31,561 nt of DNA from a virus (lineage: Duplodnaviria; Heunggongvirae; Uroviricota; Caudoviricetes), in IMG/VR virus record IMGVR_UViG_2534681698_000021, one strand, 5' to 3'. Below the pieces are notes generated by a model. The model was not told the origin of the DNA, searched no databases, and saw only the letters and a list, made by a program, of their open reading frames with translations. The position numbers and the translations under genes are program-made. Shown piece by piece: positions 4,039 through 25,214 of the stretch (its first letter is position 1; each line of letters begins with the position of its first letter).

Positions 4039-4050
4039 CACGCTACCGCC
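4039..4050 (-). promoter_or_regulatory. ops / JUMPstart element (GGCGGTAGCGTG on minus strand) in the waaQ operon leader; RfaH-dependent antitermination site
   Basis: Plus strand reads CACGCTACCGCC at 4039-4050, whose reverse complement is GGCGGTAGCGTG (ops core GGCGGTAG). It lies about 50 nt upstream of the waaQ start on the transcribed strand. Confidence 0.85.
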
Positions 4051-4401
4051 CCAGGCTCAACAGCTACCTGAATACTGATACCGCACTGATATTGACGCGC
4101 TAGTGTATCACTTCTTTCGCGGCAATCCGACCCGAATGATTTTTAAGCACATTGTTGATTTTCAATAAAGAAATCAATCAAATAAAATCATTAGCAACCA
4201 TATTCTTTCACTGTTGCTCTGCGATTCCTTCCTGCACGTACAGCAGAAATCAATGAATCGCATAAAAATACAAAAAAAGTATAGATGTTCAGCAAGAATT
4301 GGCGGGTAAATTGCTATTTAAGTCAAAAACGGGAAAAGTAATGGTAAAGCCACAGCTAAATACATAGAATCCCCAGCACATCCATAAGTCAGCTATTTAC
4401 T

Positions 4402-20378: not shown

Positions 20379-21068
20379 ATGAACCCAACACGTTATGCAC
20401 GCATCTGCGAAATGCTCGCCAGGCGGCAGCCTGATCTGACCGTCTGCATGGAGCAGGTCCACAAACCTCATAACGTTTCTGCGATTATTCGTACCGCAGA
20501 TGCCGTTGGCGTACATGAAGTTCACGCCGTCTGGCCTGGTAGCCGCATGCGCACCATGGCTTCGGCAGCTGCGGGTAGTAACAGCTGGGTACAGGTGAAA
20601 ACACACCGCACCATTGGCGATGCCGTCGCTCATCTCAAAGGCCAGGGCATGCAGATTCTGGCAACCCATCTTTCTGATAACGCTGTCGATTTCCGCGAAA
20701 TTGATTACACTCGCCCGACCTGCATTTTGATGGGACAGGAGAAAACGGGCATCACGCAGGAAGCATTGGCCCTGGCGGATCAGGACATCATCATTCCGAT
20801 GATCGGCATGGTGCAGTCGCTGAATGTTTCCGTTGCCTCAGCCCTCATTCTTTACGAAGCCCAGCGTCAGCGGCAAAATGCAGGCATGTACCTGCGTGAA
20901 AACAGCATGTTGCCGGAAGCAGAGCAACAACGCCTGTTGTTTGAAGGCGGCTATCCGGTGCTGGCGAAAGTCGCAAAACGCAAAGGCCTGCCTTATCCCC
21001 ACGTCAATCAGCAAGGCGAGATCGAAGCTGATGCCGACTGGTGGGCTACTATGCAGGCTGCAGGGTAA
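20379..21068 (+). CDS. trmH: tRNA (Gm18) 2'-O-methyltransferase
   Basis: 229-aa ORF MNPTRYARICEMLARRQPDLTVCMEQVHKPHNVSAIIRTADA..., recognised as TrmH/SpoU. Confidence 0.92.
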   Translation: MNPTRYARICEMLARRQPDLTVCMEQVHKPHNVSAIIRTADAVGVHEVHAVWPGSRMRTMASAAAGSNSWVQVKTHRTIGDAVAHLKGQGMQILATHLSDNAVDFREIDYTRPTCILMGQEKTGITQEALALADQDIIIPMIGMVQSLNVSVASALILYEAQRQRQNAGMYLRENSMLPEAEQQRLLFEGGYPVLAKVAKRKGLPYPHVNQQGEIEADADWWATMQAAG

Positions 21069-21073
21069 GTGCC

Positions 21074-23155
21074 ATGAAAGGTCGCCTGTTAGATGCTGTC
21101 CCACTCAGTTCCCTAACGGGCGTTGGCGCAGCACTTAGTAACAAACTGGCGAAAATCAACCTGCATACCGTGCAGGATCTACTCTTACACCTTCCCCTGC
21201 GCTACGAAGATCGCACCCATCTCTACCCCATCGGAGAACTACTGCCGGGCGTTTATGCCACGGTGGAAGGCGAAGTGCTGAACTGCAATATCTCCTTCGG
21301 CGGTCGGCGGATGATGACCTGCCAGATCAGCGACGGTTCCGGCATCCTCACCATGCGCTTTTTCAATTTCAGCGCGGCAATGAAAAATAGCCTGGCGGCG
21401 GGCCGCCGTGTACTGGCTTATGGCGAAGCAAAGCGCGGTAAATATGGTGCGGAGATGATCCACCCGGAATACCGCGTGCAGGGCGATCTCAGCACGCCAG
21501 AATTACAGGAAACGCTCACGCCGGTTTATCCAACAACGGAAGGCGTAAAGCAGGCCACGCTGCGTAAATTAACCGACCAGGCGCTGGATCTGCTCGACAC
21601 CTGCGCCATTGAAGAACTCCTGCCGCCGGAACTGTCACAAGGAATGATGACGCTACCGGAAGCGTTGCGCACTTTGCACCGCCCGCCACCGACGCTACAG
21701 CTTAGCGATCTGGAAACCGGGCAGCATCCGGCGCAACGTCGTCTGATTCTGGAAGAACTGCTGGCGCACAACCTCAGCATGTTAGCCTTACGTGCCGGAG
21801 CACAGCGTTTTCATGCCCAGCCGCTGAGCGCCAATGACACGCTGAAAAATAAACTCCTCGCCGCCTTACCGTTCAAGCCAACGGGCGCACAGGCACGCGT
21901 AGTGGCGGAGATCGAGCGCGATATGGCGCTGGATGTGCCGATGATGCGTCTGGTGCAGGGCGATGTAGGTTCCGGTAAAACGCTGGTCGCCGCCCTCGCC
22001 GCGTTGCGTGCGATTGCCCACGGCAAACAGGTAGCATTGATGGCACCAACCGAATTACTCGCCGAGCAGCACGCCAATAACTTCCGCAACTGGTTTGCAC
22101 CGCTCGGTATCGAAGTGGGCTGGCTCGCCGGTAAGCAGAAAGGTAAAGCACGGCTGGCACAGCAGGAAGCCATCGCCAGCGGTCAGGTGCAGATGATTGT
22201 CGGTACACACGCCATCTTCCAGGAACAGGTGCAGTTTAACGGCCTAGCGCTGGTGATTATCGACGAACAGCATCGTTTTGGCGTGCATCAGCGTCTGGCA
22301 TTGTGGGAGAAAGGCCAGCAGCAGGGCTTCCATCCGCATCAGTTGATCATGACCGCCACGCCGATCCCCCGCACGCTGGCAATGACTGCGTATGCCGATC
22401 TCGATACCTCGGTGATAGATGAGCTGCCGCCAGGCCGCACGCCAGTGACTACGGTCGCTATTCCTGATACCCGCCGTACCGACATCATTGACCGCGTGCA
22501 CCACGCCTGCATAACTGAAGGTCGTCAGGCATACTGGGTTTGTACGTTGATTGAAGAGTCGGAATTGCTGGAAGCGCAGGCGGCGGAAGCTACCTGGGAA
22601 GAGTTGAAACTGGCGCTACCAGAGTTGAACGTTGGCCTGGTACACGGGCGGATGAAACCTGCCGAGAAACAGGCGGTGATGGCGTCGTTTAAACAAGGTG
22701 AGCTACACCTGCTGGTTGCCACAACCGTTATTGAAGTCGGCGTTGATGTGCCTAACGCCAGTCTGATGATTATCGAAAACCCGGAGCGTCTGGGTCTGGC
22801 GCAGTTACACCAGCTTCGCGGGCGTGTAGGTCGTGGTGCGGTGGCTTCTCACTGCGTGCTGCTCTACAAAACGCCGCTCTCCAAAACCGCGCAAATTCGG
22901 CTGCAAGTGCTGCGCGACAGCAACGACGGTTTTGTGATTGCACAGAAAGACTTAGAGATTCGCGGACCGGGTGAACTGTTAGGTACGCGTCAGACGGGTA
23001 ATGCTGAGTTTAAAGTGGCGGATTTACTGCGCGATCAGGCGATGATCCCGGAAGTTCAGCGCCTGGCGCGACATATTCACGAACGTTACCCACAACAAGC
23101 AAAAGCCCTGATAGAACGCTGGATGCCGGAGACGGAACGTTACTCCAACGCATGA
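21074..23155 (+). CDS. recG: ATP-dependent DNA helicase RecG
   Basis: ORF 21041-23155; recognised N-terminus MKGRLLDAVPLSSLTGVG at ATG 21074 (693 aa); helicase motifs GSGKT and DEQH present. Confidence 0.93.
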   Translation: MKGRLLDAVPLSSLTGVGAALSNKLAKINLHTVQDLLLHLPLRYEDRTHLYPIGELLPGVYATVEGEVLNCNISFGGRRMMTCQISDGSGILTMRFFNFSAAMKNSLAAGRRVLAYGEAKRGKYGAEMIHPEYRVQGDLSTPELQETLTPVYPTTEGVKQATLRKLTDQALDLLDTCAIEELLPPELSQGMMTLPEALRTLHRPPPTLQLSDLETGQHPAQRRLILEELLAHNLSMLALRAGAQRFHAQPLSANDTLKNKLLAALPFKPTGAQARVVAEIERDMALDVPMMRLVQGDVGSGKTLVAALAALRAIAHGKQVALMAPTELLAEQHANNFRNWFAPLGIEVGWLAGKQKGKARLAQQEAIASGQVQMIVGTHAIFQEQVQFNGLALVIIDEQHRFGVHQRLALWEKGQQQGFHPHQLIMTATPIPRTLAMTAYADLDTSVIDELPPGRTPVTTVAIPDTRRTDIIDRVHHACITEGRQAYWVCTLIEESELLEAQAAEATWEELKLALPELNVGLVHGRMKPAEKQAVMASFKQGELHLLVATTVIEVGVDVPNASLMIIENPERLGLAQLHQLRGRVGRGAVASHCVLLYKTPLSKTAQIRLQVLRDSNDGFVIAQKDLEIRGPGELLGTRQTGNAEFKVADLLRDQAMIPEVQRLARHIHERYPQQAKALIERWMPETERYSNA

Positions 23156-24006
23156 CCAGACTCATCACAAGACAAGTCACGCAGTAAATCTTCAATCTGG
23201 ATAGTGAGGATATCCATTGCCTCATACGCATCCTGTGCAATTCGCGCCGCCATTGCGCCTTCCGGTTCACCACGCAGAATTTCAGCCGCTGCCTGTACGC
23301 CAGCCACAATCATTTCAGGTGTTAACATTTGGCGAAGAAAAGCGCGATTATCAGAGGACCAGCCATCTTTATGGCCTAATGGATGCCCCCAGCCTATCCA
23401 TTCTTGCGACCATAACGGATTGGCTTCTATGGGATAAATTAGATGCGCGGCATACTGAATAGCACACACCGCTTTTCCTGGCGTATCCAGCGCCCACCAG
23501 CGCGACCAGAGAGAACGAATTAACGGCGCGGCCCCACCCAGAGTATTGAACACCGCCAGCCAGCAAAGAACGTTATTGAAACCACGCTCGTTATCCATAC
23601 GCTGCAACGCGGTGTCCAGTAAAAATTGCCGTACCTGCTGGCGTTGGGAAGCATTCATCATCTCCTGCCAGAGATAGGGCCGACACAATGCCTTCATTAA
23701 GGATTCTTCGAAGTGATCACCATAACCGCCAGCTAAAACGGTTTCATGCCATTGCGCCAGGCAGAGCGGAAACAGATAGCGAAACAACTCTATTTGCATC
23801 GGTTCGTTATAAACGAGATTGAGTACATAGTAAGCACTCAAATCCCATTCGCTGATCTGCTGCCACTCTTTAGCCGCCAGCGCCTTGAGTTCGGCATCTG
23901 CGTAATCAAATTCCGTTTCCCATACACAGAGCACTGGCGGCTCATCACCAAAAATATGGCGACAGTGTTCACGTAGCGTTTCCGGTTCCTTCCGACGCTT
24001 TTTCAT
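23140..24006 (-). CDS. Hypothetical protein, 288 aa, Trp-rich, predicted cytoplasmic; function unknown
   Basis: Uninterrupted 867-nt minus-strand ORF (MKKRRKEPETLREHCRHIFGDEPP...SCDESGHALE). ATG sits 2 nt after the gltS stop (TAA-AA-ATG), and its stop lies 16 nt inside the recG 3' end. About 13 Trp in 288 aa, no hydrophobic segments and no recognisable catalytic motif. No convincing Shine-Dalgarno upstream of the start. Confidence 0.6.
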   Translation of the reverse strand: MKKRRKEPETLREHCRHIFGDEPPVLCVWETEFDYADAELKALAAKEWQQISEWDLSAYYVLNLVYNEPMQIELFRYLFPLCLAQWHETVLAGGYGDHFEESLMKALCRPYLWQEMMNASQRQQVRQFLLDTALQRMDNERGFNNVLCWLAVFNTLGGAAPLIRSLWSRWWALDTPGKAVCAIQYAAHLIYPIEANPLWSQEWIGWGHPLGHKDGWSSDNRAFLRQMLTPEMIVAGVQAAAEILRGEPEGAMAARIAQDAYEAMDILTIQIEDLLRDLSCDESGHALE

Positions 24007-24008
24007 TT

Positions 24009-25214
24009 TTAACCGGCAAAAATCGGCAACATTAAATACAGCTTAATCACCAGCGCATTGACGATATCGATAAAGAACGCACCGACCATCGGCACCACCA
24101 AAAACGCCATGTGCGACGGGCCAAAGCGTTCAGTGATCGCCTGCATGTTGGCGATTGCCGTTGGCGTTGCACCGAGGCCAAAACCACAGTGACCCGCAGC
24201 CAGCACTGCCGCATCGTAGTTTTTGCCCATCATGCGCCAGGTAACGAAGATGGCATACAACGCCATGAAGATGGTCTGTACCACCAGAATCGCCAGCATC
24301 GGCAGCGCCAGCGAAGCCAGCTCCCACAGTTTCAGCCCCATCAGCGCCATCGCCAGGAACAACGACAGGCTTACGTTACCCAGCACGGATACCGCACGCT
24401 CAAAGACGCGGTAAAAGCCCATCATTGACAGACCGTTGCTCAGAATCACGCCAACAAACAGTACACAGACGAAGGTCGGCAGTTCAAAAGCAGTGCCAGC
24501 CAAAAGTTGCGCAACAATTTTCCCCACCGTCAGGCAGATAGCAATCAGCGCGATAGTTTCAATCAGCACCAGCGAGGTGATCATGCGGCCCACATCCGGC
24601 TTTTCAAACGCCGTCGGGACTTCCTGGTCATCCGGAATACCGTTCGGCGTGGTGGAGTGTTTCACCAGATAGCGCGCCACCGGACCGCCAATCAAGCCGC
24701 CCAGCACCAGACCGAACGTTGCACAGGCCATCGCCACTTCCGTCGCATTGGTGAAGCCATAACGTTCAATGAACAATTTACTCCACGCAGCGCCCGTACC
24801 GTGACCGCCGGAAAGCGTAATAGAACCGGCCAACAGCCCCATCAGCGGATCAAGCCCTAACAGGCTAGCCATACCAATGCCAATGGCATTTTGCATCACC
24901 AACAGACCAACAACCACAATCAAGAAGATGCCAACCACACGCCCACCGGCACGCAAACTGGCAATGTTGGCGTTCAGGCCAATGGTGGCGAAGAAAGCCA
25001 GCATTAACGGATCGCGCAGGGACATATCAAAGTTGACTTCCCAGCCCATGCTTTTTTTCAGTACCAGTAGCGCTAGCGCCACCAACAAACCACCCGCAAC
25101 AGGTTCCGGTATGGTGTATTTCTTCAAAAAGGAGACGGAATGGACCAACTTACGCCCGAGCAGCAACGTCAGCGTTGCGGCAACAAGCGTTGCTAAAGTA
25201 TCGAGATGAAACAT
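24009..25214 (-). CDS. gltS: Sodium/glutamate symporter
   Basis: 401-aa polytopic membrane ORF MFHLDTLATLVAATLTLLLGRKLV..., recognised as GltS. Confidence 0.92.
   Translation of the reverse strand: MFHLDTLATLVAATLTLLLGRKLVHSVSFLKKYTIPEPVAGGLLVALALLVLKKSMGWEVNFDMSLRDPLMLAFFATIGLNANIASLRAGGRVVGIFLIVVVGLLVMQNAIGIGMASLLGLDPLMGLLAGSITLSGGHGTGAAWSKLFIERYGFTNATEVAMACATFGLVLGGLIGGPVARYLVKHSTTPNGIPDDQEVPTAFEKPDVGRMITSLVLIETIALIAICLTVGKIVAQLLAGTAFELPTFVCVLFVGVILSNGLSMMGFYRVFERAVSVLGNVSLSLFLAMALMGLKLWELASLALPMLAILVVQTIFMALYAIFVTWRMMGKNYDAAVLAAGHCGFGLGATPTAIANMQAITERFGPSHMAFLVVPMVGAFFIDIVNALVIKLYLMLPIFAG

Follow-up and report, generated by a model that had tools for sequence, protein, structure and literature searches.

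ybl159, a conserved accessory gene packed between gltS and recG of Escherichia coli

The recG–ybl159–gltS locus

The window analyzed here, by which we mean the whole stretch of 31,561 nt, contains an open reading frame for 288 amino acids (ORF288) packed tightly between two well-annotated genes. On the plus strand, recG (21074..23155; 693 aa), which the ORF list and RefSeq annotation place at the end of the spoT-trmH-recG transcription unit, runs toward ORF288 (23140..24006, minus strand), and gltS (24009..25214, minus strand) lies directly 5' of it, encoding a sodium/glutamate symporter of 401 aa according to the ORF list and the RefSeq annotation of identical DNA in O157:H7 and REL606. The TAA stop codon of gltS (complement of 24009-24011) is followed by AA on the minus strand (24007-24008) and then by the ATG of ORF288 (complement of 24004-24006), so that the 2-nt gap described in a preceding sequence-only reading of this DNA is borne out by the coordinates. 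This ATG is the first start codon past the preceding in-frame stop and agrees with an N-terminus (MKKRR...) that is common to all orthologues. At the other end, the TAA of ORF288 (complement of 23140-23142) indeed falls inside the last codons of recG, the TGA of which occupies 23153-23155. The resulting tail-to-tail overlap of 16 nt (23140..23155) is visible directly in the sequence as coding on both strands, read as (CG)T TAC TCC AAC GCA TGA in recG and as (GG)T CAT GCG TTG GAG TAA in ORF288.

ORF288 is identical to the RefSeq coding sequence WP_000747329.1 and carries the UniRef name Ybl159, with ybl159 being the gene name used in E. coli B. It belongs to a family of all-alpha proteins of roughly 300 aa without annotation, for which we found 33 close homologues and, at 50% identity, 440 clusters, and which shares the invariant motifs VWE.EFD, LFRYLFP.CL..W, and WW. 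Its AF2 model is confident (pLDDT 87.9) and contains 15 helices, and within E. coli the gene evolves with a dN/dS of 0.27. By these sequence-based measures ORF288 is a genuine gene, which probably encodes a soluble all-alpha protein. HEAT/ARM-like alpha-solenoid proteins may be considered for comparison.

Neither ORF288 nor 10 to 15 distant family members matched a curated family in Pfam, NCBIfam, PADLOC, or PHROGs, a sequence profile search of the PDB returned nothing below an E-value of 0.04, no structural match to the family emerged, and the source names of the distant clusters are all “hypothetical” or absent. A role in polymorphic-toxin immunity or defense is a weak lead. Recurrent adjacency to toxin or defense genes was not found, as the enterobacterial loci lie among housekeeping genes and the distant loci have unrelated neighbors. 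Literature searches for ybl159 returned nothing on this gene beyond a single remark in a 2026 genotyping paper, which notes just a “variable intervening gene” separating recG from gltS (PMC13185298). The Cupriavidus locus, alone in this respect, has DUF6869, DUF6714, and McrBC nearby.

Conserved position and an allele without the gene

In Enterobacteriaceae, ybl159 always converges on the 3' end of recG, as seen in E. coli, Salmonella, Klebsiella sp., Pseudocitrobacter, Superficieibacter, Intestinirhabdus, Enterobacter sp., and further lineages. In 11 of 12 enterobacterial lineages, the arrangement of the 2 genes ranges from overlapping by 16 nt to lying 12 nt apart. The convergence with recG is constant while the 5' neighbor varies between gltS, xanP, and glpX. 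Since the same packing recurs in orthologues from several genera that are just 48% to 71% identical, this comparison of sequences tells us that it is beyond chance and shows that the gene already abutted the recG 3' end when the enterobacterial genera split. The packing is therefore old, common to enteric bacteria, and a matter of ordinary operon architecture rather than a new regulatory device. We also considered a functional link to GltS and rejected it because ybl159 persists where gltS is absent and vice versa.

The 16-nt overlap itself is less constant. It recurs in Pseudocitrobacter, Intestinirhabdus, and 2 further lineages (L030 and L034), but is replaced by gaps of 1 to 12 nt in Salmonella, Klebsiella sp., Enterobacter sp., L006, and L032. 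The overlapping codons encode merely the end of the C-terminal tail of ORF288 (..SGHALE), which is modeled with low confidence (pLDDT of about 58) and is missing from Salmonella and others, where an earlier stop codon is used. For these reasons, the overlap is explained more simply by stop-codon drift in a junction that was already without a gap. It arose because the ORF reads the antisense of the last recG codons until it reaches a TAA, which added a disordered tail.

Among complete E. coli genomes, about 1,912 of 5,426 (approximately 35%) carry ORF288, so that the gene sets E. coli B (REL606/BL21), O157 (including O157:H7), and many B1/E-type strains apart from K-12, which has no ORF288. In the ORF-less allele, recG and gltS are parted by a 33-bp spacer (L002, 1857-1889) with an 11-bp GC hairpin (−22 kcal/mol; z −2.5). 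This spacer keeps TAAccgATGAAGCGGCGG, matching TAACCGATGGTTAAGCGCCGCCG at the intact start of the Intestinirhabdus gene, and the hairpin is thus built partly from a remnant of the ORF288 start. Comparison of the alleles shows, at the level of sequence, that ybl159 was deleted in about 65% of E. coli and that its first codons (ATG AAG CGG CGG) remain in the GC hairpin. Neither this polymorphism nor the hairpin of the ORF-less strains was known to the sequence-only reading.

This history leaves very little room for the idea that ORF288 is a recent foreign insertion or a nonfunctional, decaying ORF of O157-like strains, which we regard as very improbable. Its patchy distribution in E. coli would fit such an origin, as would a GC3 of 0.50 compared to 0.60 to 0.65 in the neighboring genes, a synonymous diversity below that of the flanks, and frameshifted alleles that occur frequently in certain E. 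coli populations (e.g., P0002 with 269 members). However, many genera have orthologues at this very position, features of mobile elements are absent, and the low dN/dS, conserved family motifs, and confident fold prediction all argue for a maintained protein. Recent horizontal insertion in particular was rejected because synteny is conserved and the ORF-less alleles keep the start codons of the gene. The sequence data are best explained by ybl159 being a vertically inherited yet dispensable accessory gene, and it may be weakly expressed or decaying given that frameshifted alleles are common and its GC3 is low.

Translation of ybl159 downstream of gltS

The junction of gltS and ybl159 (24004..24011, minus strand), characterized by its sequence, anti-Shine-Dalgarno (anti-SD) energy, and fold z-score, reads UAA-AA-AUG and consists of the gltS stop, a 2-nt spacer, and the ORF288 start. 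Within 22 nt 5' of this ATG, the best anti-SD duplex reaches just −2.4 kcal/mol compared to −8.2 kcal/mol for the Shine-Dalgarno (SD) sequence of gltS itself, confirming that ORF288 has no SD. The gene pair thus has the layout of coupled genes: both lie on the same strand, the gltS stop is within a few nucleotides of the ORF288 start, and the latter is without an independent ribosome-binding site, though its start region is A-rich and unstructured (fold z +0.92). The sequence-only reading had also seen no room for a promoter, which is correct for the intergenic space but overstated otherwise because a promoter could sit within gltS. A consensus scan for sigma-70-like sites found one weak candidate there on the ORF288 strand (24607-24580) and no convincing promoter internal to gltS, with promoter-like sites in total at chance level (2 found, 2.3 expected).

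The claim that ORF288 is co-transcribed and translationally coupled with gltS gained ground from a comparison of junctions in different lineages. In the 3 gltS-linked lineages (E. coli, Salmonella, and L006), the stop-to-start distances are 2, 2, and −1 nt, and the junctions read TAAaaATG, TAAagATG, and TAATG, respectively. None of them has an SD, since pairing with the anti-SD amounts to −2.4, −3.3, and +0.7 kcal/mol. Conversely, 4 of 6 stand-alone orthologues in the absence of gltS have a strong, correctly spaced GGGAGG (−11.1 to −12.4 kcal/mol). The remaining 2, from Klebsiella sp. and Intestinirhabdus, are likewise without a strong SD, and its absence is therefore not peculiar to the coupled state. 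Taken together, the tight SD-less junctions with gltS and the SD-bearing stand-alone orthologues support co-transcription and translational coupling as judged from sequence.

Translational coupling by termination–reinitiation at close or overlapping stop and start codons is well known from pairs like trpE-trpD and trpB-trpA. Similar to these, gltS and ORF288 share one strand with stop and start 2 nt apart (UAAAAAUG), the distal gene has no SD, and one orthologue even has the overlapping arrangement UAAUG. Unlike in these pairs, no functional link is known between the membrane transporter and the soluble protein that are joined here, most strains do not have the distal gene, and we infer the coupling from comparative anatomy alone. 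In E. coli, gltS and ybl159 would form a transcription unit of two genes with ybl159 in the distal position, and ribosomes ending gltS translation at the UAA would start again at the AUG 2 nt downstream, probably helped by the A-rich and unstructured start region.

Alternatively, ORF288 could be expressed apart from gltS, from a promoter in the gltS coding region and with an SD-independent (S1-assisted) start, in which case the 2-nt spacing would reflect mere compaction. The unstructured start region, the sigma-70-like site inside gltS, and the 2 stand-alone orthologues without a strong SD are all compatible with this scenario. Nevertheless, we find it unlikely, if worth keeping in mind, as the promoter-like sites occur at chance frequency, the tight stop–start arrangement is kept in 3 lineages despite differing junction sequences, and a strong SD is present in 4 of 6 orthologues without gltS. 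Coupling to gltS is the preferred reading, and the locus offers a clean natural case of likely SD-less coupling with matched stand-alone orthologues that bear strong SDs.

Fate of the convergent transcripts

The tight packing had been taken to leave no space for a terminator of either transcript, and this view stands. No terminator-like hairpin was found on the plus strand after recG or on the minus strand after ORF288, and the 130 to 150 nt past each stop codon show no excess of structure compared to shuffled sequences (z −0.04 to +0.96). Judged by structure and composition, transcripts would read through without a hairpin terminator into untranslated regions antisense to ORF288 (23156..23400, plus strand) and antisense to recG (22900..23139, minus strand). 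The recG read-through region contains windows with C>G, and another such window (C/G up to 2.3) is located 80 to 230 nt past the ORF288 stop in the gltS-ORF288 read-through. The C>G windows of the recG read-through could fit Rho loading, with base composition as the sole ground for a role of Rho. Each RNA polymerase probably enters the opposite gene on untranslated RNA and would be halted by Rho and/or head-on collisions, and read-through would yield some complementarity between the 3' ends of both mRNAs.

For convergent genes of E. coli, bidirectional terminators were described by Ju et al. 2019 (as cited in bioRxiv 10.1101/2022.10.23.513370), and the citing study reports termination driven by collisions where E. 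coli gene pairs converge. Like in such pairs, the recG and ORF288 transcripts have to terminate inside or shortly beyond one another, and the ORF-less allele has a typical hairpin between both stop codons. A hairpin of the kind expected for a bidirectional terminator is found in the ORF-less allele only, while the allele in the window lacks both intergenic space and a hairpin between the recG and ORF288 3' ends. If collisions act at this junction, they would have to do so without the pausing element that the collision model requires.

Excludons and overlapping 3' UTRs of convergent genes are known from Listeria and Staphylococcus, and recG and gltS-ORF288 resemble them in that they converge and would give mRNAs with complementary 3' ends. 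The recG/ORF288 overlap could by analogy be a functional antisense or transcriptional interference device that reciprocally tunes recG and gltS-ORF288. This would be in line with the lack of a terminator in either direction, the recurrence of the 16-nt overlap in at least 4 other lineages, and the hairpin exactly at the junction of ORF-less strains. Yet we consider such a device improbable: the coding overlap spans just 16 nt, is not kept in all lineages, and encodes a low-confidence tail, the gene is missing altogether from about 65% of E. coli, and DNA repair and glutamate uptake have neither opposing functions nor an apparent functional link. A search of Rfam yielded no RNA family in the vicinity. 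Antisense interplay between the recG and gltS-ORF288 transcripts, as suggested by the sequence-only reading, is possible, with no specific support. More speculatively, and in our view improbably, Ybl159 might be the founder of a new, widely scattered single-gene family (e.g., a stand-alone defense, immunity, or stress protein), and, separately, the terminator-less junction might make the transcripts of recG (spoT operon) and gltS-ybl159 interfere, with the ORF-plus/ORF-less polymorphism shifting the expression of recG or gltS from one E. coli lineage to another (e.g., B/O157 versus K-12) and the K-12-type hairpin made from the remnant of the gene.

Overall, the best explanation, which we consider reasonably likely, is that ybl159 is a genuine, vertically inherited, and dispensable gene that is coupled to gltS and anciently abuts recG without intrinsic terminators. 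The tightly wedged ORF has thus become a real, conserved accessory gene, which mostly tidies up an unexplained feature and overturns nothing in current understanding. With 440 clusters devoid of annotation and an all-alpha model that is confident and looks novel, the Ybl159 family makes a sensible target for functional study. The 2 alleles form a natural pair at one convergent junction, one with no terminator and one with a hairpin, on which models of termination by Rho or by collisions could conveniently be tested.

An uncharacterised gene packed between gltS and recG

The window is part of an E. coli chromosome of the O157:H7 type and matches several O157:H7 genomes at 100% identity across positions 22800–24400. 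In it, spoT-trmH-recG on the plus strand face ORF288-gltS on the minus strand, with xanP-yicH next. In the ORF list, gltS occupies 24009..25214 (-) and ORF288 23140..24006 (-), and recG (+) ends at 23155. The minus strand reads GCC GGT TAA AA ATG AAA AAG across the gltS/ORF288 junction, leaving 2 nt between stop and ATG, and the recG end (CGT TAC TCC AAC GCA TGA) lies opposite the ORF288 end (GGT CAT GCG TTG GAG TAA), so that both genes overlap tail-to-tail by 16 nt (23140–23155). Every coordinate of this gap and overlap in the earlier sequence-only reading proved correct when re-read. For recG we used the RefSeq ATG at 21074 (693 aa), not the GTG at 21041 of the mechanical ORF list, which would overlap trmH by 28 nt. 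An Rfam JUMPstart RNA element at 4039–4077 (-; 55.2 bits, E 3e-10), probably the leader of an LPS-core (waa) operon, is unrelated to ORF288.

ORF288 is a real gene, listed as hypothetical protein WP_000747329.1 in RefSeq and as Ybl159 in UniRef. Its 33 close homologues include those of Salmonella (69–71% identity) and Superficieibacter (66%), and the lowest identity, 37%, is that of a Zoogloeaceae MAG. A profile search recovered 440 clusters at 50% identity, mostly ~300 aa long and with 111 below 1e-30, from Proteobacteria, Planctomycetes, Armatimonadota, and Cyanobacteria. Across the family alignment, 41 columns are invariant, among them VWE.EFD, LFRYLFP.CL..W, and WW, and the AlphaFold2 model is confident and all-alpha (pLDDT 87.9, pTM 0.87, 15 helices). 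With a basic N-terminus that lacks a hydrophobic segment, the protein is expected to be soluble and cytoplasmic. Searches of Pfam, NCBIfam, PADLOC, and PHROG gave no match for ORF288 or the diverse family members searched, a PDB sequence search gave none for ORF288, and we found no literature on ybl159/ORF288. Within E. coli its dN/dS is 0.27 (10 synonymous and 10 non-synonymous differences), a weaker constraint than that on gltS and recG (about 0.02–0.03). Clustered at 90% identity, the protein collection places ORF288 (23143–24006) in a 9,280-member cluster represented by a 401-aa GltS, presumably because some gene calls run over the 2-nt gap as chimeras or fusions; because of this placement, the exact E. 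coli cluster is missing from the homologue search.

Probable coupling to gltS

Comparison among orthologues makes the earlier proposal that ORF288 would be co-transcribed and translationally coupled with gltS well supported. Where gltS lies upstream, the junction is TAAaaATG in E. coli, TAAagATG in Salmonella, and TAATG at the retrieved locus L006, with anti-SD energies of -2.4, -3.3, and +0.7 kcal/mol, respectively. By contrast, the stand-alone orthologues of Pseudocitrobacter, both Superficieibacter, and Enterobacter sp. kpr-6 carry GGGAGG 4–6 nt before the ATG (-11.1 to -12.4 kcal/mol), and those of Klebsiella sp. and Intestinirhabdus have weak sites (about -1 to -3 kcal/mol). This difference is the strongest evidence at hand that gltS-linked ORF288 would depend on ribosomes brought in by the translation of gltS. 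The start region in E. coli, UUAAAAAUGAAAAAG, lacks structure (z +0.92), which would also permit SD-independent initiation. A promoter within gltS might drive ORF288 instead, but a consensus scan of that strand found a single weak site, at chance frequency.

The recG junction and transcript ends

At every enterobacterial locus recovered, the ORF288 orthologue converges on the recG 3' end regardless of its upstream gene, which is gltS (E. coli, Salmonella, L006/L007), xanP (Intestinirhabdus, Enterobacter sp. kpr-6, L030), or glpX (L005, L032, L034); Klebsiella sp. MISC125 (L012), Pseudocitrobacter (L013), and Superficieibacter (L014, L015) have no gltS in the 4-kb flank. Rearrangement breakpoints always fall upstream of ORF288 and never between it and recG, because no spacer exists there. 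The distance to recG varies, from the 16-nt overlap (E. coli, Pseudocitrobacter, Intestinirhabdus, L030, L034) to gaps of 1–2 nt (Salmonella, L006, L032, Klebsiella sp., Superficieibacter sp. 1612_C1) or 12 nt (Enterobacter sp. kpr-6), and Superficieibacter electus has an extra small ORF in between. Overlapping forms share a C-terminal extension (..SGHALE or ..RGQALE) that is missing from the others, and this tail is modelled with low confidence (block pLDDT 58). The E. coli end (GAG TCT GGT CAT GCG TTG GAG TAA) and its Salmonella counterpart (GAA TAG GAT TAG GCG TTG GAA TAA) differ simply by the presence or absence of in-frame stops, one of which hinges on the use of TGA or TAA as the recG stop. 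Stop-codon drift in an already spacer-less junction would thus be the simplest account of the overlap.

As the sequence-only reading had anticipated, neither transcript has an intrinsic terminator at this junction: we found no hairpin with a T-run after the recG or the ORF288 stop, and folding of the first 130–150 nt past either stop is no stronger than that of shuffled sequence. Read-through at either stop would produce antisense RNA that is not translated and contains C>G windows, and C/G peaks at 1.7 in the first 160 nt past recG and at 2.3 at 117–195 nt past ORF288. Untranslated, C-rich antisense RNA is a substrate for Rho termination. Together with a published model of collision-driven termination for convergent E. 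coli genes (bioRxiv 10.1101/2022.10.23.513370), this suggests that both transcripts may end inside the opposite gene via Rho and/or collisions. Such ends would allow the antisense interplay between the recG and gltS-ORF288 mRNAs that had been proposed, but a selected regulatory role is difficult to reconcile with an overlap that is not conserved among lineages, with ~65% of E. coli managing without ORF288, and with no evident functional link between the two units. Interference or antisense interplay is unproven and not required by the data. The locus is a new and well-documented case of known types of organisation, combining an operon pair that is probably translationally coupled with a convergent 3' overlap, and it involves an uncharacterised protein family.

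Probable loss, possible spread, and genomic contexts of ORF288

About 1,912 of 5,426 complete E. coli genomes carry ORF288, with at least 99% identity to the window in 1,873 of the 1,918 matching genomes and 100% in O157:H7, O103:H2, and E. coli B REL606/BL21 derivatives. The remaining genomes have one of two recG-gltS spacers. The shorter (33 bp; L002 1857–1889) corresponds to window positions 23140–24008 and forms an 11-bp GC hairpin (-22 and -19.3 kcal/mol for the two strands; z -2.5 and -2.3). The K-12 spacer (168 bp; L025 3293–3460) is the same type enlarged, with two hairpin copies flanking an insertion that by eye resembles the REP (repetitive extragenic palindromic) type. On the gltS strand, the ORF-less spacer reads TAA ccg ATG AAG CGG CGG, directly resembling the first ORF288 codons (ATG AAA AAG CGT CGG); it retains TAAccgATGAAGCGGCGG, apparently a remnant ORF288 start, and agrees as well with TAACCGATGGTTAAGCGCCGCCG, the junction at the intact orthologue in Intestinirhabdus. 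These resemblances lead us to infer that the ORF-less alleles arose by deletion, with the leftover ORF288 start codons apparently supplying one hairpin arm.

In the protein collection, E. coli alleles with a frameshift or truncation are common (clusters P0002, P0014, and P0022 with 269, 73, and 26 members), and cluster P0001 has an in-frame 31-residue deletion, which suggests ongoing decay in some lineages. These broken alleles and a GC3 of 0.50 (0.60–0.65 in flanking genes) are signs of dispensability. O157:H7 and REL606 are identical over 2.1 kb (22247–24367), a stretch that runs from the 3' half of recG through ORF288 into the 3' end of gltS, and differences restart deeper in gltS and in xanP. 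Compared to strain Trh52, the dS of ORF288 (0.055) is about one-third of that of its flanks (0.16–0.18). The ORF-bearing allele may thus have spread lately through recombination.

A functional tie of ORF288 to GltS or RecG is improbable: orthologues stay beside recG where the locus is gltS-free, and the majority of E. coli retain gltS and recG without ORF288. Beyond Enterobacteriaceae, homologues lie in unrelated contexts, e.g., downstream of a retropepsin-like protease (Zoogloeaceae MAG) or near RNA ligase and RlaP genes (Isosphaeraceae MAG). Scattered occurrence as a lone gene with no fixed context is what accessory genes typically show. The Cupriavidus campinensis homologue shares an island with DUF6869 and DUF6714 proteins and a McrBC component (L019 3176–8263), and the related locus L009 has IS integrase/transposase genes as well. 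This island is the sole context hinting at a neighbourhood of defence or immunity genes, and involvement in either is no more than a lead. The Leminorella grimontii homologue (L018 3929–4897; 45% identity) stands alone between gapA and an aldose-epimerase gene resembling yeaD, two genes that are neighbours in E. coli, and provides another example of a single gene wedged among housekeeping genes.
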